Position numbers and translations under genes: made by a program
The notes under the pieces: generated by a model
Databases searched by the model: none
Told to the model about the DNA's origin: nothing
The model's input: the letters and a program-made list of their open reading frames with translations, nothing else
Source: Alphaproteobacteria bacterium
GTDB taxonomy: Bacteria; Pseudomonadota; Alphaproteobacteria; UBA6615
Assembly (NCBI GenBank): GCA_039980135.1
Contig: JBDXCV010000009.1
Span: 131,854 to 195,853 of the forward strand
Reading direction: 5' to 3'
DNA: 64,000 bases
Part shown: positions 27,629 through 62,499 of the stretch, piece by piece
How positions within the stretch are numbered: position 1 is the first letter of the stretch
Layout: each line of letters starts with the position of its first letter

Positions 27629-28558
27629 ATGGTAACGATTCCATCTTCGCCCAAGGGTCCCGCGGTCTATGTGGTGGGTGAAAGGCAGGTCGATGCGACC
27701 TTCCGCACGCTGATCGAATTGTGCCTGAAGACCCTGAAGAGCGGCCCCTGCGACGTTGAGGCTGTCGTGACCGCGGCCGATGTCAGCCCGGCAGATCGCA
27801 GCGCAATCCTCGAATTCCTGCAGGACGAATACAATGCGCGGGGCGCGTTCATCACCGGTCAGGAATCGCAATTTCTCGACGAATCCAGCGACGCCTACGA
27901 TGAGATCGACGACGCCAGCCTGCTTCTCGGCGAAGTCGGTGTGGTCGTGCGCCAACCGGGCCAGCTTCGCGCCGCCGCACCGCGCCTTGACGCTGCTGTC
28001 CGCGCGGCAAACCGAATCCTGCCGGGCGATACCCCGGAAATTCTGATCCTGGGCGCCGGTCCGGATGCGCGTGCCGTCGCGGCCGCCGTCGCGACAGGGG
28101 CCTGTGATGCCAAGCCGCAGAAAGTGACCATCGCCAGCACGGATTCAAAGGGCCTGGCGGACGTCCGCCAGCGCATCGAGAACCGCGTCAACCAGGGCGA
28201 ACTCGAAATTCGCCATGTGGAAAGCCCCACGGAACATGACCGGCTATTGGCGCTATTGCCGCCACGAAGCGCCGTCATCAACGCCAGCGAAGGCGAGTAT
28301 GGCACCAATGCCGCCGTCGGCAGCGCGGCGCTCTTTCCCGCGCAGAGCGTCGTCTGCGACCTGCTGGCCCCGGCGGGCAGGTCTCGGCTTCTCGCAGAGG
28401 CAGTCCAGCAGCGTAGCGCATCGGAGCTCAAGATCCATGACGGACGCATCTACGCCCTGGAGTGCCGGTTCGCGGTCCTGCAGGCCATGTTCGGCGCCGA
28501 AGCGAGCGACGCGCAGCTGGGCACACTGCGCAAAGGCATCGAGAAACTCGGAGCCTAG
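27629..28558 (+). CDS. hypothetical NAD(P)-binding protein (shikimate dehydrogenase-like Rossmann motif)
   Basis: ILILGAGPDARAVAAAVA resembles the AroE-family dinucleotide-binding motif. The N-terminal domain is not recognised. Confidence 0.3.
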   Translation: MVTIPSSPKGPAVYVVGERQVDATFRTLIELCLKTLKSGPCDVEAVVTAADVSPADRSAILEFLQDEYNARGAFITGQESQFLDESSDAYDEIDDASLLLGEVGVVVRQPGQLRAAAPRLDAAVRAANRILPGDTPEILILGAGPDARAVAAAVATGACDAKPQKVTIASTDSKGLADVRQRIENRVNQGELEIRHVESPTEHDRLLALLPPRSAVINASEGEYGTNAAVGSAALFPAQSVVCDLLAPAGRSRLLAEAVQQRSASELKIHDGRIYALECRFAVLQAMFGAEASDAQLGTLRKGIEKLGA

Positions 28559-28565
28559 AAAACGG

Positions 28566-30611
28566 TCATCTGAGGGCAGCCTCGATGTTCCCGCCGTCCA
28601 CCGTCAGCACGGCGGCTGTTGTCTTGTCCGCCAGCGCCAAGTCAACAAACGCCTGCGCGACATCCTCGGCCCGGACTTCACGGCCGAGCAGGTTCCCTGC
28701 CAGATACGCCTCTTCCGACAGCCCCCGCGCATTCGACCTGGCGCGCACCATCTTGTCCGTCAGGAGGCCGCTACGAATCCGGTCGGCATTCACGGCGTTG
28801 GACCGTATGCCGTCAGCGCCATGATCAAGCGCGTACTGGCGCGAGAGGAAGAGCGTGGCGGCCTTCGGCAAGCCATACGGACCGAAATCCCTGCCCGGAT
28901 TAACAGCCTGCTTCGACGTGTTGAACAGCAACACGCCACCCGTGCCCTGGGCGCGCATGACCGCGGTCGACGCCTGGGCAACCCGCTGATGGGCAAAGAA
29001 ATTCAGCTCGAAACTCTCACGCAGGGTCTTCTCGTCGACATCACCGATCCGTCCCTGCCACGCCGCCCCGGCATTCGACACCAGGATATCGACCCCGCCG
29101 AAGCGTTCGCATACTGCCGCGAAGGCGCGCTTCACATCCGCATCCCGCGTCACGTCACAGGCAACGGCCAGGCCGCGCAACTCGTCGGCAAGAGGCCCGG
29201 TCACGCGCCGGTCCAAATCGAGAAGCGCCACGTCGGCGCCGGCGGCGGCGAAGGCGCGCGCGGTGGCCTGGCCAATAGCGCCCCCCGCCCCGGTGATCAC
29301 GACGATCCGGCGGGCGAGCGGCTTTTCCTTCGCCGAACCGAGTTTGGCCTGCTCGAGCGACCAGTGTTCGATCGCGAATGTCTCGGCTTCCGAAATCGAC
29401 CGGAACCGTCCGATCGCCTCGGCGTCGGTAATGACCTCGATATTGTTCTCGTACACATCCGCGGCCACGTCCGCCGCCCCGGCGTTCACGCCGGCGGCGA
29501 AGAAACCCAGCCCCGGCGCCAGCAACACGCGCGGCGCCGGGTCGAGCGGCGTGCGCGGGTCGGCCGGATCGTTCCGGCGTTTGAAGTAGCCGTGATAGGC
29601 GGTCTCGTAGCGGGCGATGGCCCTCGCCGCGCCGTTGAAAAACCCGTCCAGGTCGTCACGCACCGGCAGCGGCAGAATGACCGGCTTCGGCTTGATCCGG
29701 ATCGCGTGATCGGGTGTCACCGTACCCTGCTGGCTGTAGCGCTTCACGGCCGGGTCGGAGACAAACCGCCGGATCGCGGGACTGGTGCGGAATGTCATGA
29801 CGAACCGCACCGGGTCTTCCCCGCGCGCTTGCGCCAGCATGCCGCGGAGACGCGGGGCGATATCGGCCGCCTTCGCCACGCGAGGCGCATGGCGCGGCGG
29901 CGTAAACACAGGATTGCGCCGCCCGGTCTTCAGACGACGCTCGGCGAGGCTGACGAGTTCGACCATACGCCCATAGGCTTCCTCGGCACTTTCGCCGAAG
30001 GTGAAGATGCCATGCTTGAGCAGGATCAGGCCTTCGACCCCCGCGTGCTTCGCCTGAACCCGCGCGCAAGCCTTGGCCAGCGCGAAACCCGGCATGATGT
30101 AGGGCACCAGCGCGGCGCGATCGCCAAACAGGTCACGGCATATTTTTGCGCCGTCCGGCTGATCGGTCAGGGCCAGCACCGCAGTCGAATGCGTGTGATC
30201 GACAAACTTGTGCGGCAGAAACGCATGGAGCAGCGTCTCCACCGATGGATTTGGCGCCTTTGAATCGAGCAGATTGTGCCTCTGGACGTTGACCATCTCT
30301 TCGTCGCCCAGATGGTCCAGCCCGCGCAACGCACGCAACGGGTCGAGGCGTACGGCGGGCAGCCCCGGCGGCTCGATATCGCCCATATCCCAGCCGCTGC
30401 CTTTGACGCACAGCACATCAAGCTGCTCTCCGGTGATATCCGCCGCGACCGTCTTGACCGACGTGTTGCCACCGCCGTGCAATACCAGGCGCGGATCACC
30501 CCCCAGCAGGCGTGTCGTATAGACCCGCCGGGCAATATCCGCGTTCACCCCCTGCGCGCCATAGCGGCGGACAAACGCCCGGGCGTCGCGGTCGGACCAG
30601 AGATTTTTCAT
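28566..30611 (-). CDS. bifunctional class II aldolase (rhamnulose-1-phosphate aldolase-like) / short-chain dehydrogenase
   Basis: 681 aa. N-terminal class II aldolase/adducin domain fused to a C-terminal SDR domain (TGAGGAIG…NAGAA). Confidence 0.85.
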   Translation of the reverse strand: MKNLWSDRDARAFVRRYGAQGVNADIARRVYTTRLLGGDPRLVLHGGGNTSVKTVAADITGEQLDVLCVKGSGWDMGDIEPPGLPAVRLDPLRALRGLDHLGDEEMVNVQRHNLLDSKAPNPSVETLLHAFLPHKFVDHTHSTAVLALTDQPDGAKICRDLFGDRAALVPYIMPGFALAKACARVQAKHAGVEGLILLKHGIFTFGESAEEAYGRMVELVSLAERRLKTGRRNPVFTPPRHAPRVAKAADIAPRLRGMLAQARGEDPVRFVMTFRTSPAIRRFVSDPAVKRYSQQGTVTPDHAIRIKPKPVILPLPVRDDLDGFFNGAARAIARYETAYHGYFKRRNDPADPRTPLDPAPRVLLAPGLGFFAAGVNAGAADVAADVYENNIEVITDAEAIGRFRSISEAETFAIEHWSLEQAKLGSAKEKPLARRIVVITGAGGAIGQATARAFAAAGADVALLDLDRRVTGPLADELRGLAVACDVTRDADVKRAFAAVCERFGGVDILVSNAGAAWQGRIGDVDEKTLRESFELNFFAHQRVAQASTAVMRAQGTGGVLLFNTSKQAVNPGRDFGPYGLPKAATLFLSRQYALDHGADGIRSNAVNADRIRSGLLTDKMVRARSNARGLSEEAYLAGNLLGREVRAEDVAQAFVDLALADKTTAAVLTVDGGNIEAALR

Positions 30612-30659
30612 AATGGCGTTGCCCTGAACAGGTTGACCGGATTCGACTGCAAAAACCGA

Positions 30660-31547
30660 TTATAGGGCGTCGTACCAGGCGGCAAGCGCCTTGCCGATTT
30701 CATGGGGCGAATCTTCCTGGGGATGATGTCGCCCGCGCACGACCACCTCTTCAAAGTTCGACCAGGAACGAAATACCTCGAGGTCACGCTCGAAAACGAT
30801 CTGTCCGGGATCGACATTGATGAACAGTTTCGGGAGGTTGTTGGTCTGCATCCACGCCGAGAGGGTTTCCATCAGCGCGGCGACGTCGGCAGGATCGCCC
30901 TCGATCGGGATCTGGCGCGGCCAGGTAAGCGTCGCACGACGGCTCTCGCCGGGCTCTTTATAGGGGCGCCGTATCTCGGCCATCGTTTCTTCGTCGACGT
31001 CCCGAATGACGCCGGCGGTGAAGACCTTTTCGACGAAGAAATTCTCCTCCAGCACCAGCCGCTCGCCCTCTGCCGTCCGCAACATCTTGAGCATATCTCC
31101 CACGGCGTTGGGATAGTCGTCGTAGCTCTCATGGTTGCAGGCCAGGACCTCGCTATAGGCAAGCGCCTTGATCCTGTCCGCATGGCGATGTGCCCAGCTC
31201 ATGCCGAGGGGCCCGCCCCAGTCATGCATGACGAAGGTCACATTGTCGGTGACGCCGAGCGCATCGAGCGCGCCGTCGATGTAGGTCTGGTGCTCGGCCA
31301 GCGTGTAGCTGCCGGGACCGGAATCTGGCAGCCGCGCGGAATCGCCCTGGCCGATATTGTCGATCGCGATCAGCCGGCCCCGGCCTTCCATGTGGGGCAT
31401 GATATTGCGCCACATATAGGACGAGGTGGCGTTGCCGTGGAGAAACACAATGGGATCCCCGGTTCCGTGCTCGGCGTAGGCCATTTTCTGGCCGTTCACC
31501 TCGACGAAGGCCTTCGCGTAGGGCATGCGCGGGCTGATTTCATTCAT
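30660..31547 (-). CDS. haloalkane dehalogenase (DhaA/LinB subfamily, alpha/beta hydrolase)
   Basis: HGNATSSYMWRNI subfamily-II motif. Nucleophile elbow VMHDWGG. 295 aa. Confidence 0.85.
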   Translation of the reverse strand: MNEISPRMPYAKAFVEVNGQKMAYAEHGTGDPIVFLHGNATSSYMWRNIMPHMEGRGRLIAIDNIGQGDSARLPDSGPGSYTLAEHQTYIDGALDALGVTDNVTFVMHDWGGPLGMSWAHRHADRIKALAYSEVLACNHESYDDYPNAVGDMLKMLRTAEGERLVLEENFFVEKVFTAGVIRDVDEETMAEIRRPYKEPGESRRATLTWPRQIPIEGDPADVAALMETLSAWMQTNNLPKLFINVDPGQIVFERDLEVFRSWSNFEEVVVRGRHHPQEDSPHEIGKALAAWYDAL

Positions 31548-31580
31548 ATTGATGTCCTTACCGGGTCCTTGCTGGCGCGT

Positions 31581-32468
31581 TCAGATTGCAGCGTACCATT
31601 TCGCGAGCCCCTGGCCGATCTCATCGGGTGAATCTTCCTGGGGATGATGCAGCCCCCGCACCTTGATTCGTGACTGGTTCGTCCAGCTGTTGATGATGTC
31701 GAGGTCACGATCGACGATGATCTGGCCGGGGTCCGCCTCGATGAAGAGCTTGGGGCAGTCGATCGTACCGACCCATGCCGACAGCCTTTCCGACAGCGCC
31801 GCGACGAATGCGGGTTTGCCGCCGATCGGAATCTGCCGCACCCATGACAGGGTCGGGCGGCGAGCCTCGCCGGGCGCTTCATACGGGCGACGGATTTCGG
31901 CCATCGTCGCGGCATCGACCTCGCGGATCACGCCGCCGGTAAAGACATTCTCGACAAAAAAATTGTCTTCGAGGACCAGCGCCTCCCCGTCCGGTCCCTG
32001 CGCACGCTTCACCCGTTCACCGTGCCCGTCGGTATAGGAATCGTAGCTCGCATGGTTGGCGACCACGATCTCGCAATGGGCCAGACCCTTGATCGCATCC
32101 GGGTGCCGTTCGGCCCAGGACAGGCCCAGCGTGCCGCCCCAGTCATGCATTACCAGGGTGACGTCTTTTTCGACACCGAGTGCGGCGAACGCCCCGTCGA
32201 TATAGATCTGGTGCTCCGGGATCATGTAGCTGTCCGGCCCACTGTCGGGCAACTTGTCGGAATCGCCCTGACCAATATTGTCGATTGCGATCAGGCGCCC
32301 CAACCCTTCGAGATGGGGCATGATGTTGCGCCACATGTAGGACGAGGTCGCGTTGCCATGCATGAAGACAATCGGGTCGCCAACCCCCTCATCCACATAG
32401 GCCATGCGGCGGCCATTCACTTCGATGAATTTCTTCGCGTACGGCATTCGCGCGCTGATATCGGTCAT
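31581..32468 (-). CDS. haloalkane dehalogenase, tandem paralog
   Basis: Collinear with, and close to, 30660–31547 (HGNATSSYMWRNIMPH, VMHDWGG). Start at ATG 32468 behind GAGGGGG. The ORF track extends to 32543. Confidence 0.85.
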   Translation of the reverse strand: MTDISARMPYAKKFIEVNGRRMAYVDEGVGDPIVFMHGNATSSYMWRNIMPHLEGLGRLIAIDNIGQGDSDKLPDSGPDSYMIPEHQIYIDGAFAALGVEKDVTLVMHDWGGTLGLSWAERHPDAIKGLAHCEIVVANHASYDSYTDGHGERVKRAQGPDGEALVLEDNFFVENVFTGGVIREVDAATMAEIRRPYEAPGEARRPTLSWVRQIPIGGKPAFVAALSERLSAWVGTIDCPKLFIEADPGQIIVDRDLDIINSWTNQSRIKVRGLHHPQEDSPDEIGQGLAKWYAAI

Positions 32469-32614
32469 GTTCCCCCTCGATCCGAGCACCGGTTTCCCGA
32501 CAATATGCGCGGATGGAGCGACGGGTCCAAGCGCAGCTGCCATGCATGTTATCGGACGCTCGCCGGCGTCGCTGTCGTGTTAACCTGAAGAACCTGCAGC
32601 CAAGCCGATTCTTC

Positions 32615-33028
32615 ATGACCGAACACCTCCACCACACGCATCTGTTCTGCTCGAACATCGACGAGACCATCGCCTGGTGGTGCGGGATGCTCGGTGCCGA
32701 GATCGCATTCGACGGTGATTTCGGCGGTGCGCGCAACGTGTTCATTCGGCTTGGGTCGGGCCGCCTTCACCTCTATGCGCAAGCACCGCGCGACGCCGGC
32801 AAGGGTGCTGTGCATCACATCGGTATTCGTACAGACAATCTAGAGGCGCTCGAAGCGCGGCTGCGTGCCAGCGGCATCGCGTTCCGCAGTGACATCCGCG
32901 ATTTCGGCGCCTGGAAATACATCATGTGCCCGGCCCCGGACGGCGTGCTGCTGGAGTTGTTCCAGGCCGACACCGAAAAGCTCGACGGCGACGCCGCCAG
33001 ATACTTCAGCGACTGGCTCGACGGCTGA
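32615..33028 (+). CDS. VOC family (glyoxalase/bleomycin-resistance/dioxygenase fold) protein
   Basis: About 137 aa. HTHLFCSNIDETIAWW… matches the VOC fold. Confidence 0.7.
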   Translation: MTEHLHHTHLFCSNIDETIAWWCGMLGAEIAFDGDFGGARNVFIRLGSGRLHLYAQAPRDAGKGAVHHIGIRTDNLEALEARLRASGIAFRSDIRDFGAWKYIMCPAPDGVLLELFQADTEKLDGDAARYFSDWLDG

Positions 33029-33036
33029 CCACGCGC

Positions 33037-34236
33037 ATGTCCAGCACATCATCCGACAACGTCATCCCGCCGATCTTCTTCCTCGGCTTTCTCGCCGCTA
33101 TAGGGCCGCTGGCCCTGAGCATCCACGTCCAGTCGATCCCGGCCATCTCGGCGGCGTTCGGCACGCCCTATGCCCAGGCTCAGCTGACCGTCTCGGCGTT
33201 CCTGATGAGCTTCGCCGCCGCGCAGCTGATCGTCGGGCCCCTGTCCGACCGTTTCGGCCGGAAGCCGGTCTTGTATGGCGGTTTGCTGCTGTTTGGCCTC
33301 GCGAGTGCCGGCGCGGCCATGGCCAACAGTATCGAGGTGCTCATCGTCGCGCGCATATTGCAGGGTGCGGGGGGCTGCGCCACCCTGGTCGTGCCGCGCG
33401 CGGTCGTTCAGGACACCCATCGCGGCGTCGATGCCGCGCGGGTCATGGCGTTTGTGGCCATGCTGCAATCCACCGCGCCATCGATCGCACCCGTGCTGGG
33501 CGGCGGGATCGATGCCCTGATCGACTGGCGATGGATCTTCTGGTTTTTGACCATATTGGCTGCGCTGGCGGCGCTCGGCGCGAGTTACTGGCTGCGTGAA
33601 ACCCGACCTCTCACGGGCGGCCAGCCCAATGGTTGGGGCACGATATTCCTGCGTTACGCACAGTTGTTTCGCTCGCGCCTTTATATCGGCTACACGATTG
33701 CCTTCACCTTTGGGACATCGGGATTTTTCGGTTTTCTCGCGGTGGGGCCGGCCCTGCTCATCGAAACGCGCGGGCTCGACCCGATCTGGTTCAGCGTCTG
33801 TCTGACGCTGGTTACGTCCCAGTTCGTACTCGGCAACTACACGGCCAGCCGCCTCGTGCGCCGGTTTGGCATCGACCGGGTGCTGGTCGCGGGCGTGATC
33901 GGTGAAATCGTCGCGGGCTTGATATTATTCGGACTGTCCGGTCAGGCGGCAATCGCAGCCGTCGTCGGGCCGGTGATGCTCTACTCCTATTTCAACGGCT
34001 ATATCTTCGCCAACGGGATTGCCGGCGGGACGGGCGTCGATCCGCGCGTCGCAGGCTCCGCCTCGTCGTTCCTGGGTTTCACCCAACTCGGAACAGGGGC
34101 CGCAATCGCCTTCGTCATGAGCCGTCTGCCGCTCGATACCATTCTGCCTTACGCGATTACCCTGATCATCGTCAGCGCCCTGGCCGGTGCGGGCATGATG
34201 CTGGTGCGCACGGCGCGGCAGCCGGCCTCGTCGTAA
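33037..34236 (+). CDS. MFS transporter, Bcr/CflA drug-resistance subfamily
   Basis: 12-TM MFS. Contains the GPLSDRFGRKPV MFS motif. ATG at 33037. The ORF track extends upstream. Confidence 0.8.
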   Translation: MSSTSSDNVIPPIFFLGFLAAIGPLALSIHVQSIPAISAAFGTPYAQAQLTVSAFLMSFAAAQLIVGPLSDRFGRKPVLYGGLLLFGLASAGAAMANSIEVLIVARILQGAGGCATLVVPRAVVQDTHRGVDAARVMAFVAMLQSTAPSIAPVLGGGIDALIDWRWIFWFLTILAALAALGASYWLRETRPLTGGQPNGWGTIFLRYAQLFRSRLYIGYTIAFTFGTSGFFGFLAVGPALLIETRGLDPIWFSVCLTLVTSQFVLGNYTASRLVRRFGIDRVLVAGVIGEIVAGLILFGLSGQAAIAAVVGPVMLYSYFNGYIFANGIAGGTGVDPRVAGSASSFLGFTQLGTGAAIAFVMSRLPLDTILPYAITLIIVSALAGAGMMLVRTARQPASS

Positions 34237-34309: not shown

Positions 34310-35641
34310 TCAGAACTGTTCGGCCTCGGTTGAACCCGCCATGGCGGTTGTCGATGCCTGACCGGCCGAAATCGCCGTCGAGACCGCATCGAAGTAGGAG
34401 GTGCCGACCTCGCGCTGATGGCGCGTCGCCGAGTAGCCTTCCTCTTCCGCCGCGAACTCCTGCTCCTGCAGCCGGGAATAGGCGGCCATCCCCTCGTCGG
34501 CATAGGACCGGGCGAGGCGGAAAGTCGCGTAGTTCAGGCTGTGGAAGCCGGCGAGCGTCACGAACTGGAACTTGTAGCCCATCGCCGCGATCTCGCGCTG
34601 GAAGTGGCGCATATCGTCGGCATCGAGATGTTTCGCCCAGTTGAACGACGGTGAACAGTTGTAGGCCAGCATCTGATCGGGATACTCGGCCTTGATCGCT
34701 TCGGCATAGCGCCGCGCCTCATCCAGGTTCGGGGTCGCCGTCTCGCACCAGATGAGATCGGCATATGGCGCATAGGACAGGCCGCGCGCAATAGCGCAGT
34801 CAAGGCCGCCGGTGATCCGGTAAAATCCCTCCGACGTGCGTTCACCCGTCAGGAACGGGCGATCGCGTTCATCGATATCGCTTGTGATCAGCTGTGCCGC
34901 GTTGGCGTCCGTGCGCGCCATGATGATGGTCGGGACCCCCTGCACGTCTGCCGCCAGGCGGGCCGCATTGAGCGTGCGGATGAACGTGGCCGTCGGGACC
35001 AGGACCTTGCCGCCGAGATGGCCGCATTTCTTCTCCGATGCCAATTGGTCCTCGAAATGGACGCCGGCCGCACCCGCCTCGATCATCGCCTTCATCAGTT
35101 CGAAAGCATTCAGGGAACCGCCGAAGCCCGCTTCCGCGTCGGCGATGATCGGCGCGAAGAAATTGAGGTCGGTCGACGCTTCACCGTCGGCATGTTCCAT
35201 CTGCTGCACCTGATCGGCACGCTGGAACGCCTGGTTGATGCGCTTGACCACCGCGGGAACGCTGTCCACCGGATAGAGGCTCTGGTCGGGATACATCTGG
35301 CCGGACGAGTTGGCATCTGCAGCGACCTGCCAGCCGGACAGGTAGATGGCCTTGAGCCCGGCCCGAATGTGCTGGACCGCCTGATTGCCGGTATACGCGC
35401 CCAGGGTCGGGACGAACTCCTCTTCCGCGAGCAGCTTCCAAAGACGCGCCGCCCCCTGATCGGCCAGCGTGTGGGCGATGCGTACCGACCCGCTGAGCCG
35501 GGCGACATCGGCCTGTGTGTAATCGCGGCGAATGCCGTTCCAGCGGTCGGCCGCCCAGTCCGGGGCGGGCCAGGCCTCCGTCTCCGGGGACAGGCCTTCG
35601 GGTTGGTTGGGCATGAGGGTCAAATCGTCAGGCATCGTCAT
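34310..35641 (-). CDS. aceA: isocitrate lyase
   Basis: KKCGHLGGK active-site signature. Start placed at ATG 35641 (MTMPDDL) behind GGAG. The ORF track over-extends to 36553. Confidence 0.9.
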
Positions 35642-57178: not shown

Positions 57179-57261
57179 GACCTGCACGCCGCCCTGGTTT
57201 GGTTTTACGGTTCCAATATACTTCACAACGCCCCGGTCAACGCAGAAAGCAAGTACGAGAG

Positions 57262-58893
57262 ATGAAATCGCCTATCAAGGTAGTTGACGTATTTGCTGGT
57301 CCTGGCGGGCTTGGAGAAGGCTTCTCTGCGCTCACACACGGCTCGGGTGAAGATTGTTGGCGCCCGTTCAAGATCACCATCTCCGCCGAGATGGATCCGG
57401 TCGCACGGGAAACTCTTCGTTTGCGTGCGTTTTACCGCCAGTTCCCGGACGCGGCGCATGTTCCAGACGAGTACTTCGATTACCTCGCGAACCCGACCAC
57501 AGAAGCATTCGAAATACTATCGGAGCGCTTTTCCGAAGAGTGGGCGGAGGCCAACGGTGAAGCACTTCAGCTAGAACTTGGGAACGAAGACGACGACGCA
57601 AAGCTTTACAGGTTGCTCGACGCACGAGTTGAAGAAAACAGCGACTGGATATTGGTGGGAGGCCCCCCGTGTCAGGCCTACTCACTGGTGGGTCGAGCCA
57701 GGAATCAGGGTAAAGATGACTATGTCCCTGAGGAGGATCACCGCCACCTGCTCTACCGAGAATACCTGAAGATAATTCAGAAGAAGCGCCCTGCTGTCTT
57801 CGTCATGGAGAACGTCAAGGGACTTCTCTCTTCCACGCTCGATGGGGCACCGATCTTTGATCGTATCCTGGAGGACCTCAGCGATCCGGACCTGGCGCTG
57901 GAGCACAGTCCAAGCGCCGAGGGACAAGGGTATCGACTGTATTCGATGCTGACCGGTGAGTGTTATTCGCGCGACAAAACACTCGCTCGCATTGACCCCC
58001 GCAGTTTCATACTGCGTGCAGAGGAGTACGGAGTTCCTCAGCGTCGGCACCGAATTTTCATTCTTGGGGTACGAGAGGACATCGAGCCGGACTTTGACCT
58101 TATCCTGCCCAAATCTGAGATGCCGGCGCCGAGCTTGCGCGCCGTAATTGGGGATCTGCCGCCACTACGGAGCGGTTTGTCCCGACGTGGCCGAACGTCG
58201 CCAGATACGTATGAACTCTGGTCCAGGGAAGTCATTAACCAGGCTGAGCTAGTAGCCACGGCTCTTCATGAGACCGGCTCGGATACTCTGTTCGAAGCAA
58301 ATTTCGATGAGATCCGCGAAGTGTTGAACGAGGCGGCCAACAGTCTTCGAACACGCAATGAACCGCTCGAACGTCGACACCAATCCGAAAGAACGCTTCA
58401 TCCGGAAATGGACCCGGATGTGACGCGCACGCTCGTTGAATGGCTTACCAATGACCGCCTACGTTCGGTTGCCAATCATGAAACCCGCGCGCACATAGCA
58501 AAAGATTTCGGGCGCTATCTTTTTTGCGCCGCCTGGGCCTCGGTGGAGAAGTACTCGCCCAAATCCGACGAGTTTCCATTAGGACTGGCACCAGCTCACA
58601 AAAACTGGTCGACAGGCAAATTCGCTGATCGATTCCGGGTTCAGGTCGCGGAAGACACGGCCACCACGATCACCAGCCATATCTCAAAAGATGGACACTA
58701 CTTCATCCACTACGATCCTGCACAATGCCGAAGCCTCACCGTAAGGGAAGCGGCGCGGCTACAGACTTTTCCTGATGACTATTTCTTCATGGGACCCAGA
58801 ACCCAGCAATACCATCAGGTTGGAAATGCCGTTCCCCCCTTCTTGGCCAAGCAAATTGCTGGGCTCGTGCTTCAGATAGTCTCGAAAAGCTAA
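57262..58893 (+). CDS. dcm: DNA (cytosine-5)-methyltransferase
   Basis: Motif I FAGPGG, motif IV PPCQAYS, motif VI ENV, motif X QVGNAVPP. 543 aa. Divergent from vsr. Confidence 0.9.
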   Translation: MKSPIKVVDVFAGPGGLGEGFSALTHGSGEDCWRPFKITISAEMDPVARETLRLRAFYRQFPDAAHVPDEYFDYLANPTTEAFEILSERFSEEWAEANGEALQLELGNEDDDAKLYRLLDARVEENSDWILVGGPPCQAYSLVGRARNQGKDDYVPEEDHRHLLYREYLKIIQKKRPAVFVMENVKGLLSSTLDGAPIFDRILEDLSDPDLALEHSPSAEGQGYRLYSMLTGECYSRDKTLARIDPRSFILRAEEYGVPQRRHRIFILGVREDIEPDFDLILPKSEMPAPSLRAVIGDLPPLRSGLSRRGRTSPDTYELWSREVINQAELVATALHETGSDTLFEANFDEIREVLNEAANSLRTRNEPLERRHQSERTLHPEMDPDVTRTLVEWLTNDRLRSVANHETRAHIAKDFGRYLFCAAWASVEKYSPKSDEFPLGLAPAHKNWSTGKFADRFRVQVAEDTATTITSHISKDGHYFIHYDPAQCRSLTVREAARLQTFPDDYFFMGPRTQQYHQVGNAVPPFLAKQIAGLVLQIVSKS

Positions 58894-58926
58894 CGTGTTT
58901 GAGACCTCATGCCACCTTCGCTCGGC

Positions 58927-59760
58927 CTAGGCTGCCTGCCGGGTTGCCTTAACCCGACGGAGCGCTTCATCGCGGCAATTCAGAAGTATCTTGTCAGTCT
59001 CCTGATCCGACAGCGACTCGAAAAGCACACCGCTTCCCCGAAGGTTCAGGGCCTTCATGAATTCGCGAAAAGTGGCTTCAGTCCCGTAAACATCCGGCTG
59101 GCTTCGCATCGTCCGAATAATTCCGCGCAACAGGCTCGCCCGGTTACTGAGTATCGGACGTTCGACAAGGTTCGAACGGATGTCCGCACTTCTCAGCAAC
59201 TCTGCCAGCATCGTCACCTGATCCTCAGGGTCTACGCGCCACGCAATGTACGCGTTCCACCAGAGACGGGATATGGCGTTGTCGTCACGGTAACCTGTTC
59301 GTCCGCGTGCAAAGTAATGATTTTCAACTTGGCTGATATTGTCGTGCAGAATCCTCATTCGCTGTTCTGCGACCTTTTCATTCGATCCCACAAGGTTGCT
59401 CAGCAGATTGTTCGGTTCCTTCGGTTCATCCTTCAGTGGCCAACGTTTCCGGACGTAACCAAGGCATTCGAAATGTGTCAGGCGGCTCCAGATACGCTCT
59501 TCGGTCGCGAGCGCCGGGGTCATCCCTTCGAAAGCGTTGAAAACAATCATGGAGTTGCTGACTTCAGCGGCACTTCCACCGGCCGGGTCGAGCTTGCCGA
59601 GTTTCTCCGGATCGACCTCAACAGAAGATAATTCCATCGCCCAACCATTCAGATCAGCGCAGTCGTCAAAGCCTGAACTGCGATAACGCTCAAGGTTCGA
59701 AGGGACGTTGGCTTTCAGGTCCGCGAGGATACTTTCCGCTACGTACTTTAGTTTAGGCAT
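58927..59760 (-). CDS. hypothetical protein, distal gene of GHKL-ATPase operon
   Basis: 277 aa. No recognisable motifs beyond a possible Rx4H (RMRILH). Overlaps the upstream gene by 8 nt. Confidence 0.5.
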   Translation of the reverse strand: MPKLKYVAESILADLKANVPSNLERYRSSGFDDCADLNGWAMELSSVEVDPEKLGKLDPAGGSAAEVSNSMIVFNAFEGMTPALATEERIWSRLTHFECLGYVRKRWPLKDEPKEPNNLLSNLVGSNEKVAEQRMRILHDNISQVENHYFARGRTGYRDDNAISRLWWNAYIAWRVDPEDQVTMLAELLRSADIRSNLVERPILSNRASLLRGIIRTMRSQPDVYGTEATFREFMKALNLRGSGVLFESLSDQETDKILLNCRDEALRRVKATRQAA

Positions 59761-60598
59761 TGTCCGTCAGCTCCATGAATGCTCCACCAAGCTTCTCGAC
59801 CGGGGAGCCGAGAAGCCTTTGTGCACTTTCCAGCAGGGGCGCCTGTTCAATATCAATCCCGAGGTGTTCGCACTTCGCTGAAAAAACCCGGTACCAGGGC
59901 CGGTCCTCGAACCCGGAATCTCCCTGTCCGCGGATGCTTTCCAGAACTTCCATCACGACCGGCATGTAGACTGCACTCAACAATACAGGCTTGCCTCCTC
60001 TGGTTCCGCGCATCTGTTCGATCGACTTGAACAGATCGAGCGGTGCAAGAATGCGGATTGCATCTGCCAACAGGTCCAGCTTCAGCCTGCCTTTGGGAAT
60101 ATCGTCGGAAGGAACAAGCTCAAAAATGCTCTCAAATTTCCGGAGCTTGTCCTGCCCGATGTGGAAGACGGTGTCGTTGGCGAGGCCAATGATTTCGGAC
60201 CCGCGGATCGAAACGGCGCCACCAAATTCTGGGTTTAGGTTCTCCGCTTGCCAGTCCTTCAGTGGCCTGGCGAGCCAGATCGCCGGCTTTGCCTCGACAC
60301 GTCCATAGAGGGATCCACGATCAAAACGCCAGGTTCCTGTCGTCTCGTCTATGGCCCGAAGTTCCGAATAGAAGGTGTCCTGACACCGAATAAAAGCGCC
60401 CACGCGCGCGGTACCGTCATCTACCAGAGCCTGCACGTCGGATGACGCGAGCGACACAGCGAAATCAACCTCCACATTACCGTCGGTAGACTCACGAACT
60501 TCAGCGATCTGAAGATCAAAGCTACCGCTGAGAAAATCATCATTACCATCACTCAGAACCGGATGCGGGAAATGGCTGTTCAGATCGATTTTCATCAA
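59753..60598 (-). CDS. hypothetical protein, middle gene of GHKL-ATPase operon
   Basis: 281 aa. Overlaps the upstream ATPase gene by 4 nt. No recognisable family from sequence alone. Confidence 0.5.
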   Translation of the reverse strand: MMKIDLNSHFPHPVLSDGNDDFLSGSFDLQIAEVRESTDGNVEVDFAVSLASSDVQALVDDGTARVGAFIRCQDTFYSELRAIDETTGTWRFDRGSLYGRVEAKPAIWLARPLKDWQAENLNPEFGGAVSIRGSEIIGLANDTVFHIGQDKLRKFESIFELVPSDDIPKGRLKLDLLADAIRILAPLDLFKSIEQMRGTRGGKPVLLSAVYMPVVMEVLESIRGQGDSGFEDRPWYRVFSAKCEHLGIDIEQAPLLESAQRLLGSPVEKLGGAFMELTDNA

Positions 60599-62499
60599 CT
60601 CGCCCTCCGCACAGCATAAACCTCAACCGGGCCGGTATAGTCGTCATCGAAAGTTACTTCGATCTCGACGCGCGCGCCCTGGTCAACGTTTAGTTCGACG
60701 CGTCCGTGTTTCGCCGCACATTTCTTCGCTCCGGAGGCGGTTTCCACTCTGAGTTCGGTCTCGTAGAAGACGCCTGTTGCAAGAAATGTAAGCTCTATGT
60801 CGCCAGCTTCATCAGGAGTGAAAAAGACTTTCCTGACCTTCGCACTCTTCTCAACATTTCGTACTGTCGTAAGGCGCACGTCTGGTTTTTGCCCCCAGGT
60901 GCCATCGCCACCTTCTCCGGAACCTGAACCATCGCCTTGTCCGTCTGTGCCAGCACCGCCACCTCCATCGTCGTGGCCTGCGCCGCCTTCATCACCTTCA
61001 CCATGTGGAGCCACGGGCTTGATAGGTTTTGGCCTGACGCGTTTCGTCGGTTTAAAGCTGATCGTTTCAGGATCGTCTTCAGCTGAGGGAATTTTGGCCT
61101 CTTCGCTTCCTGCGTCAGCAAAGAACTCGCCGAGCTCATCGAGTTTGGTCGCATCCCCTCCAGTGATTTCCGCGTTTTCCTGGATCATGGTGCGGATCTC
61201 ACGGATCAGCCGCTTCATTGCCCGGGTGACATTTTTTTGTTTTTTGGGATTATCAAGGCGTCCTGGTGAAAAGGCGTTGTGCTGCGGGTTCTCCAGAGAC
61301 TTCAAAACCTTGCTGGCCTCATCATCAGCCGGCTCGACCAGCATGATAAAATCCCGTGCACCCGGGAATCTTGCGAATTTATCTCCGAAGTGTTCGAGTG
61401 ATTGGGCGATCAGCATACCGTTGCGAACGATTGCGACACGCTTGGGCATGCCCTCTTTAACGAGGATCTTTGCCTTGAACTCACCGAGATCGTCGACTTG
61501 AAACCTCTTTGTAACAGCCTCGTCTGATTTGCGGCAGCGATAGATCTGCCCGGCAAGGCGAAAATCATCACCATGTGAGGCCTCTTCGGCCACTTTTTCA
61601 ATGGCTGCGTCATCGAGCAGTGATGCGAGATTCTCACCGTTGACGATGCGCGCACCATCTCCAACTTCGAATTCGATATCGCCGTCGTCGACTGCCACAA
61701 AAAAATTTGACAGAAGCGGGACCGTCATGCGGTCGACCCAGTCTTCGCGCCCTCGGAAACCGACAGAAAAGACGGAGGTGCCCTTGCTGTCGCGCTTGAG
61801 CCATTCAGGAACCAGGTCCGGCTCCTCAACCGCCGCGAAGTGACCCGGGTGGCCCCAGTAGCCCTTCGCGGTTCGCTCTACACCGGCGGCATCCCGATGT
61901 GAAACGAGTTGCACCTTACCCTGAAGTGCGAACTTAAGATCGTTCGCGGGTCCATAGAGTGTGGAATAGAAAACAGTTCGAAGGTCGGAAACTGCAAAGG
62001 TTGCGTTCTTCCCAATTCCGAACGAACCACCCGACGTGTCCGTAGGCTTGTCGCTCTTGCCGGAGCTTTTCACGAGTGCGTGAAAATTTGATTCGGCGCT
62101 GTTTGGAGGGCCCTCCAACCCTGTCGTGTTGAAATCGGCGATTTCTAGGACCGGAATGACGTCGCTCGAGACAACATCATATGCATTCTCGAAATAGTCC
62201 CGGTCTTTCTCGCTTCCTGTCGCACGGGCAGCTTCCAGGCATGACGAAATGGTCTCCCTCAGTTTGTCGATGCCGGGAATTTCGTCCGCAGGCACTTTGT
62301 GCTCTCGAAGCACCATCCGGACAGGCCGACTGTCTGCGGCATCTAGCGTGTTCTGGCCCGCTTCGCGGCTACAGCTAACGAAAGGTGTGTCGCGAAATGT
62401 CTCGATGCCGGCATGCCCAAGCCCCTCGACCTCGCCCGCCTGATTTTCAAGAAACTCCAGCCGTACGTCCGTCATTTCAACCAGTCCCCGTTTCATCAA
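60595..62499 (-). CDS. MutL/MORC-type GHKL (Bergerat-fold) ATPase with Gly/Asp-rich linker and C-terminal domain
   Basis: GHKL motif I ExxxNxxDA (REAGQNTLDA). Motif II D-x-N-x-x-G-L (DFNTTGL). Motif III GGSFGIGKNATFAVS. Motif IV GTSV. Low-complexity HGEGDEGGAGHDDGGGGAGTDGQGDGSGSGEGGDG linker, then a ~90 aa C-terminal domain. Confidence 0.7.
   Translation of the reverse strand: MMKRGLVEMTDVRLEFLENQAGEVEGLGHAGIETFRDTPFVSCSREAGQNTLDAADSRPVRMVLREHKVPADEIPGIDKLRETISSCLEAARATGSEKDRDYFENAYDVVSSDVIPVLEIADFNTTGLEGPPNSAESNFHALVKSSGKSDKPTDTSGGSFGIGKNATFAVSDLRTVFYSTLYGPANDLKFALQGKVQLVSHRDAAGVERTAKGYWGHPGHFAAVEEPDLVPEWLKRDSKGTSVFSVGFRGREDWVDRMTVPLLSNFFVAVDDGDIEFEVGDGARIVNGENLASLLDDAAIEKVAEEASHGDDFRLAGQIYRCRKSDEAVTKRFQVDDLGEFKAKILVKEGMPKRVAIVRNGMLIAQSLEHFGDKFARFPGARDFIMLVEPADDEASKVLKSLENPQHNAFSPGRLDNPKKQKNVTRAMKRLIREIRTMIQENAEITGGDATKLDELGEFFADAGSEEAKIPSAEDDPETISFKPTKRVRPKPIKPVAPHGEGDEGGAGHDDGGGGAGTDGQGDGSGSGEGGDGTWGQKPDVRLTTVRNVEKSAKVRKVFFTPDEAGDIELTFLATGVFYETELRVETASGAKKCAAKHGRVELNVDQGARVEIEVTFDDDYTGPVEVYAVRRAS

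Follow-up and report, generated by a model that had tools for sequence, protein, structure and literature searches.

An old tandem pair of predicted HLD-II haloalkane dehalogenases in marine Alphaproteobacteria

Why would a marine bacterium keep, side by side, two genes that appear to encode the same enzyme? This question is raised by a stretch of contig JBDXCV010000009.1 (GCA_039980135.1) from a marine alphaproteobacterium. The stretch, called the window here, is 64,000 nt long, supplies the numbering for all coordinates, and carries two adjacent genes for haloalkane dehalogenases (HLDs), which we call HLD1 and HLD2. Haloalkane dehalogenases are workhorses for biocatalysis, bioremediation, and protein tagging (HaloTag), and to our knowledge their natural substrates and physiological roles are mostly unknown. 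We consider it probable that both genes encode active dehalogenases of subfamily HLD-II whose specificities have diverged, with the activity predicted from sequence. The pair would have arisen by an old tandem duplication in a marine Alphaproteobacteria lineage, and both copies would have been kept because their jobs differ.

Gene structure, family and catalytic residues

The pair, its regulatory spacers, and the codons of its catalytic pentad occupy the following positions.

31581..32468, minus strand: HLD2, the upstream copy, 295 aa, HLD-II-type haloalkane dehalogenase paralogue
30660..31547, minus strand: HLD1, the downstream copy, 295 aa, HLD-II-type haloalkane dehalogenase paralogue
31548..31580, minus strand: HLD2-HLD1 spacer, 33 bp, with an AAGGA ribosome-binding site ~8 nt ahead of the HLD1 ATG
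32469..32614, divergent: 146-bp intergenic region between HLD2 and a VOC-superfamily gene, holding the GAGGGGGA ribosome-binding site of HLD2; promoters presumed
HLD2 pentad codons, minus strand: N39 32352-32354, D109 32142-32144, W110 32139-32141, E133 32070-32072, H274 31647-31649
HLD1 pentad codons, minus strand: N39 31431-31433, D109 31221-31223, W110 31218-31220, E133 31149-31151, H274 30726-30728

A first-pass annotation of this DNA had placed two adjacent same-strand genes at 30660-32468. These bounds coincide exactly with the two coding sequences, the strand is minus, and the strings that it quoted were all found, with HGNATSSYMWRNIMPH and VMHDWGG in both copies, ACNHESYDDYPNAVGDMLKM in HLD1, and VANHASYDSYTDGHGERVKRA in HLD2. 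For HLD2, the ATG at 32468 is preferred as start codon because it is preceded by a GAGGGGGA Shine-Dalgarno sequence, allows residue-for-residue alignment with HLD1, and yields the form deposited at NCBI. A 320-residue HLD2 starting at 32543, taken from the list of open reading frames, was rejected: that form of the sequence was not found in the NCBI protein collection, and no homology was seen upstream of the methionine at 32468. In NCBI entries MEP4379565 and MEP4379566, from metagenome-assembled genome (MAG) GCA_039982435.1, both proteins are already named 'haloalkane dehalogenase'. A promoter scan of the HLD2/VOC intergenic region found no sigma-70 consensus, and tRNA and Rfam scans of the window gave no matches.

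Three kinds of comparison place both proteins in HLD-II. First, HLD1 and HLD2 score 347.5 and 327.2 bits, respectively, against the NCBIfam haloalkane dehalogenase equivalog NF002938 (cutoff 241), score far under the cutoffs of the HLD-I-type and HLD-III-type models NF002873 and NF002043, and match Pfam Abhydrolase_1 and Abhydrolase_6, which represent the α/β-hydrolase core. Second, the nearest solved relatives in a PDB sequence search are all HLD-II enzymes, namely HanR (4brz/4c6h; the same source gives DmxA as 5mxp; PMC10619424), the reconstructed AncLinB-DmbA (7pw1; PMC8584953), LinB, and DmbA/Rv2579. Third, AlphaFold2 models built from 44-sequence alignments (pLDDT 91.5 and 92.6) have an eight-strand core and cap helices at approximately residues 146-211. 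In a Foldseek search with the HLD1 model, TM scores to 7pw1, HanR, and LinB were 0.92-0.96 with a root-mean-square deviation of ~1.4 Å, and the nearest solved structures were true dehalogenases with 47-54% identity. Because the best solved relatives are HLD-II enzymes, and given the equivalog scores, the 'DhaA/LinB-type' label used in the first-pass annotation is correct.

The HLD-II pentad is complete in HLD1 and HLD2 and consists of Asn39, Asp109, Trp110, Glu133, and His274, with the nucleophile Asp109 inside the VMHDWGG elbow in both copies. These residues correspond to N38, D108, W109, E132, and H272 of LinB, which we used as numbering ruler (the LinB sequence employed matches 1cv2 at 296/296 positions). 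In HLD-II enzymes, the pentad is composed of an Asp-His-Glu triad plus an Asn-Trp pair, and the catalytic acid, a Glu after β6, sets the subfamily apart from HLD-I and HLD-III, in which it is an Asp after β7 (PMC10619424, PMC8584953). A scan of one genome per species yielded 65 related loci, with the loci nearest the window pair being those up to L022. The pentad was invariant in all 39 sequences of the clade to which the pair belongs and in 44 aligned metagenomic relatives. With all five residues present in both copies, the first-pass assignment was not refuted. No member of the clade was among the solved structures matched, nor was a characterised member found in the literature searched.

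Reasoning from the family, Asp109 would make an SN2 attack on the halogen-bearing sp3 carbon, and the leaving halide would be held by Asn39 and Trp110. Water activated by His274, with assistance from Glu133, would then hydrolyse the alkyl-enzyme ester, and the products would be an alcohol, a halide ion, and a proton. This scheme follows the catalytic cycle of LinB/DhaA type as summarised in PMC6331733, and carbon-halogen hydrolysis by HLD1 and HLD2 is predicted from family membership. As a side observation, Arg replaces the catalytic His, within SRWPQEDCP or FRWPQEDCP, in HLD-II homologues from Ktedonobacterales MAGs (L030 517-1392, L031 6001-6876, and L033 1519-2394), and these proteins presumably do not dehalogenate by the standard mechanism.

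Conservation and divergence of the two copies

How old is the pair, and has each copy been kept for its own sake? The HLD2-then-HLD1 order recurs in ~17 species-level loci, all of them from marine Alphaproteobacteria or 'Rhodospirillaceae' MAGs. In these paired loci, the upstream gene is always nearest HLD2 (~70-93% identity; one is cut off by the end of its contig) and the downstream gene is always nearest HLD1 (72-89% identity). Neighbour-joining with 300 bootstrap replicates, in which support was obtained by direct split counting, recovered the whole clade at 100%, the HLD1-type clade at 94%, and the HLD2-type clade at 80%.

The two window proteins align without gaps and are identical at 196 of 295 positions (66%; BLASTP E = 1e-152). 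Their genes share 70% DNA identity, with 53% at third codon positions and a longest shared run of 20 nt, and on these grounds HLD1 and HLD2 are old paralogues without recent gene conversion; no gene-conversion tract was found between them. Between paralogues, the nonsynonymous divergence (dN) is 0.25-0.29 and the synonymous divergence (dS) is ~1, and a recent duplication or conversion event was rejected on the basis of this dS and the 20-nt run. Among orthologues, the median dN/dS ratio is 0.098 for HLD1 and 0.077 for HLD2 (about 0.05-0.10 overall). Separate clades, low dN/dS, a paralogue dS of ~1, and the absence of a conversion tract together indicate that both copies are maintained as distinct genes by purifying selection. 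By these measures, the tandem duplication is old, and each copy is separately conserved.

Some lineages carry one type only in the same gene context, HLD1-type in L012, L015, and L017 and HLD2-type in L025, L026, and L027. Because single-copy lineages retain either type, the losses came after the duplication. The HLD1 orthologue has a broken frame in L009 (5450-6322, one stop), L016 (6001-6884, frameshift), and L019 (6911-7749, frameshift), and all three loci retain an intact HLD2 orthologue alongside; these broken frames may reflect the beginning of HLD1 loss or errors of MAG assembly or sequencing.

Tandem HLDs had been called uncommon in the first-pass annotation, and this statement is borne out in part by the loci and papers covered. 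A second HLD was found in none of 39 related loci outside the clade (L028-L066, mostly HLD-II-like) within flanks of ≤6 kb on each side. The literature searched described no tandem HLD pair and held nothing specific on duplicated HLD genes or natural marine substrates. The tandem arrangement is uncommon but not unique: it is the norm inside this clade, and double-HLD fusions occur elsewhere. The fused proteins were seen in metagenomes, outside the clade. P0135 (612 aa), P0143, and P0156 each hold two full HLD domains, and tandem duplication of the HLD domain thus occurs also as gene fusion. The first domain of P0135 has HDAGN instead of HDWG, and so lacks the halide-binding Trp, and its N-terminus resembles a lipoprotein signal. 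Clade locus L018 contains a second, divergent HLD ~4 kb away on the opposite strand.

Where, then, do the two copies differ? The first-pass annotation had suggested that they might have different substrate ranges. Nine positions strictly split the 17 HLD1-type from the 18 HLD2-type sequences (LinB 70, 134, 146, 147, 150, 176, 203, 242, and 243). Four of the nine (134, 146, 147, and 176) fall within a set of 21 first-shell and tunnel positions (Fisher p = 0.002), and six lie in the cap domain (p = 0.019). The 21 reference positions were taken from the literature, independently of the present data, and comprise the LinB first shell (N38, D108, W109, E132, I134, F143, F151, F169, V173, W207, P208, I211, L248, and H272; PMC13637021) and the bottleneck residues of tunnels p1/p2 (PMC8584953, in which D147 and L177 are LinB specificity determinants). 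The residues concerned are as follows.

LinB 134: Leu135 in HLD1, Val135 in HLD2
LinB 146: Ala148 in HLD1, Gly148 in HLD2
LinB 147: Val149 in HLD1, His149 in HLD2
LinB 150: Met152 in HLD1, Arg152 in HLD2
LinB 176: Ala178 in HLD1, Gly178 in HLD2
HLD2 copy-specific tunnel-mouth residues, minus strand: G148, H149 (32022-32024), R152 (32013-32015)
HLD1 copy-specific residues, minus strand: L135, A148, V149, M152, A178

When a third group of the clade and canonical HLDs were used as outgroups, the derived state was G148, H149, and R152 in HLD2 and L135 and A178 in HLD1. DNA identity between the two genes reaches its minimum at codons 141-156. Because this minimum and four of the nine discriminating sites fall where they do, the idea of different substrate ranges gains support. 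The comparison supports a divergence narrowed to one first-shell residue and to the main access tunnel, at its mouth and bottleneck, with a predicted entrance that is hydrophobic in HLD1 and polar and cationic in HLD2 (His149, Arg152). HLD1 and HLD2 would be expected to differ in the substrates that they take, or to act on successive intermediates of a single substrate.

Clade-wide pocket changes and competing explanations

The motif that the first-pass annotation had noted as shared by the two copies itself departs from the canonical HGNPTSSYLWRN. In all 39 clade sequences, HGNPTSSYLWRN is replaced by HGNATSSYMWRN, with HGNP becoming HGNA; PDLIGMGDS by IDNIGQGDS (DLIGMG to DNIGQG); HDWGS, for which HDWGA is also canonical, by HDWGG; and H-F/Y-[ILV]-QED by HHPQED. 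In LinB numbering, the clade thereby alters the near-universal HLD-II residues P39A, L63N, M66Q, F273H, and I274P, and its other general changes are I138H, W140Y, F143Y, L177G, A247Q, L248I, and M253D. Neither copy has the canonical HLD-II motif residues, which are typical of the subfamily without formally defining it. Among 127 HLD-domain representatives drawn from a library clustered at 50% identity, P39 is present in 97, L63 in 107, M66 in 99, and F/Y at 273 in 89. In the closest metagenomic relatives, each clade motif occurs in 130-133 of 134 sequences and the canonical form in 0 of 134.

By the alignment made here, LinB positions 177, 247, 248, and 273 correspond to C176, V245, L246, and Y273, the tunnel-engineering sites of DhaA31 (PMC6331733). 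The polar pocket residues of the clade, in window numbering, are His139, Tyr142, Tyr145, Gln249, Asp255, and His275. Judged by these side chains, the clade pocket is markedly more polar than in characterised HLD-II enzymes. Such polarity suggests substrates that are functionalised alkyl halides and not plain ones.

The same replacements could mean that the clade left dehalogenase chemistry altogether, keeping scaffold and pentad for ester or lactone hydrolysis or for cofactor-independent oxygenation, with two related non-halogenated substrates for the two copies. Ten replacements are invariant in the clade (A39, N63, Q66, H138, Y143, G177, Q247, D253, H273, and P274 in LinB numbering), and 0 of the 127 HLD-domain representatives combine them. 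Outside the clade, Ala after the halide-binding Asn (LinB position 39) occurs mainly in Renilla-luciferase-type sequences, and 21 related loci have a gene for a lactonase-like α/β-hydrolase after the HLD gene(s). We nevertheless regard such a change of chemistry as improbable. Purifying selection is strong, and neither the halide-binding Asn/Trp pair nor the Asp-His-Glu triad varies. Both proteins score above the curated NF002938 cutoff, and the nearest structures are true dehalogenases at 47-54% identity as against 39-41% for the luciferase type. Moreover, position 138 is already variable and is polar in active dehalogenases, as HanR and DmmarA have an unusual Arg at the equivalent cavity position (PMC10619424).

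An obligate HLD1-HLD2 heterodimer acting as one functional unit would explain adjacency and co-transcription, and would fit the strict order and tight spacer in ~17 genomes as well as the finding that many HLD-I and HLD-II enzymes are dimeric in solution through several interfaces (PMC10619424). Lineages with one copy only, of either type and in the same gene context, imply, however, that each copy can stand alone, and the sites that separate the copies gather around the tunnel and pocket, not obviously at known interfaces (the C-terminal helix with β8, and the L5 loop). An obligate partnership is therefore a distinctly remote prospect. Equally slight is the chance that the pair reflects gene dosage only, or one copy in decay: broken HLD1 frames in three relatives and the loss of one copy in some lineages speak for it, but those frames sit in MAG assemblies and are possibly sequencing errors, both window frames are intact with complete pentads, both copies evolve at a dN/dS of about 0.05-0.10 after a paralogue dS of ~1, the two orthologue clades are separately monophyletic with fixed differences at functional positions, and the gene conversion that dosage selection would favour is absent.

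We thus prefer two active HLD-II dehalogenases of diverged specificity, and several points weigh against this preference. First, conservation of the pentad is necessary but not sufficient for a dehalogenase, because Renilla luciferase, an HLD-II protein, keeps it and yet is an oxygenase; luciferase-type members of the HLD-domain representative set show N, D, W, E, and H at the pentad positions. Second, P39, L63, M66, F273, and I274, near-universal elsewhere in HLD-II, are the very residues replaced in the clade sequences. Third, HanR, the closest characterised enzyme, is only about 51-53% identical, and activity of the clade enzymes is predicted. Fourth, the tunnel and pocket positions were carried over from LinB by alignment. 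Fifth, neither copy is indispensable, because the HLD1 frame is broken in three relatives and one copy is missing in several lineages. Finally, the conserved arrangement of the neighbouring VOC and transporter genes could partly reflect common ancestry of related MAGs.

Gene neighbourhood and known systems

Three genes flank the pair in the window.

32615..33028, plus strand: VOC (glyoxalase/bleomycin-resistance/dioxygenase superfamily) gene, 137 aa, divergent from the HLD pair, conserved neighbour
33037..34236, plus strand: Bcr/CflA-family MFS efflux transporter, 399 aa, downstream of the VOC gene, conserved neighbour
28566..30611, minus strand: bifunctional class II aldolase/short-chain dehydrogenase (SDR), 681 aa, NF006192, starting 48 bp after HLD1

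HLD2, HLD1, and the aldolase/SDR gene are probably carried on one transcript, as judged from spacers of 33 bp and 48 bp and a ribosome-binding site ahead of each downstream gene. Co-transcription is also indicated because no terminator-like site was found in the intergenic spacers of these three genes; hits elsewhere were at the level expected by chance. On the other side, the VOC gene stays beside the HLD gene in single-copy relatives as well (L012, L017, L025, and L026), and the VOC-MFS/HLD arrangement persists in single-copy relatives in which MFS identity is only ~53%. Neither the PDB, which yielded only methylmalonyl-CoA epimerase (E = 0.005), nor NCBIfam contained an informative relative of the VOC protein.

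The lactonase-like gene (e.g., L003 6937-7842) encodes a 301-aa α/β-hydrolase and follows the HLD gene(s) in single-copy loci too; in most relatives it sits between HLD1 and the aldolase/SDR gene. Its product matches Pfam Peptidase_S15, Hydrolase_4, and DLH, and in NCBIfam it comes closest to a UilS-type lactonase model, with 145 bits, well short of the cutoff of 400. The gene is absent from the entire window and from L004, and the window has only 48 bp (30612-30659) between HLD1 and the aldolase/SDR gene.

Facing the aldolase/SDR gene in convergent orientation is a 309-aa open reading frame at 27629-28558 (plus strand). It matched nothing in Pfam or NCBIfam, and at least 14 related loci have a counterpart in the corresponding place, with 35-77% identity. 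Just past the MFS gene (34310-35614, minus strand, and beyond) lie isocitrate lyase, an XRE/peptidase-M78 regulator, and malate synthase G, which belong to the glyoxylate shunt; isocitrate lyase is conserved at that position in 9 related loci.

The gene content, with dehalogenases alongside another hydrolase, a VOC protein, and an efflux pump, would fit detoxification or scavenging of a functionalised organohalogen. A more specific scenario is conceivable but doubtful. The clade would be an ocean-wide HLD-II sub-lineage with a pocket rebuilt to be polar (His139, Gln249, Asp255, His275, and Asn64/Gln67 behind the halide-binding Asn), and its two copies would divide the work on a functionalised polyhalogenated natural compound. 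Through its hydrophobic entrance, HLD1 would remove the first halogen, and HLD2, entered past His149 and Arg152, would act on the resulting more polar halo-alcohol or halo-acid, with the VOC protein, the lactonase-like hydrolase (lost here), and the Bcr/CflA pump completing a module dedicated to detoxification or catabolism.

Elsewhere in the window, the segment at 57199-62499 has a low G+C fraction (0.55 as against 0.62-0.65 elsewhere) and is probably a horizontally acquired defence island with the following genes.

57199..58893, plus strand: C5 cytosine DNA methyltransferase
58927..59760, minus strand: match to component C, DUF6339, of PDC-M33, a PADLOC candidate defence system
59753..60598, minus strand: match to PDC-M33 component B
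60595..62499, minus strand: match to PDC-M33 component A, 348 bits

Haloalkane dehalogenase was the name that both genes already bore; what the present analysis adds to the first-pass annotation is an ancient and conserved duplication, the minus strand, and a motif-divergent branch of HLD-II. The practical value is modest, since the genes were annotated correctly and the textbook mechanism is uncontradicted. The tandem pair, its conserved neighbourhood, and its tunnel-focused differences nevertheless constitute a natural experiment in specificity divergence and provide two sequence templates with a His, Gln, Asp, and Tyr pocket composition unsampled by characterised enzymes. If the copies do divide their labour, they would offer a rare handle on natural HLD substrates.

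Among known systems, HanR from the marine Rhodobacteraceae bacterium UDC319 is the best or near-best sequence match (E = 1e-100 for HLD1 and 4e-93 for HLD2) and, like the window pair, comes from a marine alphaproteobacterium and has the HLD-II fold and pentad. Identity to the window proteins is 51-53%, and the TM score to the HLD1 model is 0.92-0.93. Its structures, 4BRZ/4C6H, are credited by PMC10619424 to Novak et al. 2014. At the cavity position occupied by His139 in the clade, HanR likewise has a polar residue, Arg136. Its motifs, by contrast, are the canonical HGNPMSSYLWRN, PDLIGMGDS, HDWGS, and HFIQEDSP, where the window pair has HGNATSSYMWRN, IDNIGQGDS, HDWGG, and HHPQEDSP, and its grouping with the clade in the neighbour-joining tree, at 36%, is not robust. 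HanR is not known to belong to a tandem pair.

LinB from Sphingobium japonicum UT26 (1CV2) and AncLinB-DmbA (7PW1) share subfamily, length, and domain layout with the window pair. Identity to LinB is 48-49%, and TM scores of LinB and AncLinB-DmbA to the HLD1 model are 0.94-0.96. Of the LinB first shell, F169, V173, W207, and I211 are identical in the pair; F143Y and L248I are changed in both copies, I134 is Leu or Val, F151 is Leu or Val, and P208 is kept in HLD1 and is Val in most HLD2 sequences. Among the LinB tunnel determinants, D147 is replaced by Val in HLD1 and His in HLD2, L177 by Gly, A247 by Gln, M253 by Asp, and F273 by His. Unlike the tandem pair, LinB is encoded by a single gene of the lin pathway for hexachlorocyclohexane.

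Renilla luciferase, a eukaryotic coelenterazine monooxygenase (2PSD; AncHLD-RLuc, 6G75), shares the HLD-II fold, the pentad, and HGNA with the clade. Luciferase-type structures rank from 28 onward against the HLD1 model, well below the dehalogenases, with 39-41% identity and TM scores of 0.88-0.90, and the closest similarity of the window proteins is not to luciferase-type sequences. Ala39 is the sole shared hallmark, as the luciferase lacks N63, Q66, H138, H273, and P274.

A final parallel is provided by Alcanivorax dieselolei B-5, a marine bacterium with two putative HLD genes, DadA and DadB, whose arrangement the abstract leaves unstated (PMC3938430). As far as that abstract goes, the likeness lies in having more than one HLD per genome; the window genes are adjacent, co-oriented, and kept as a unit across species.

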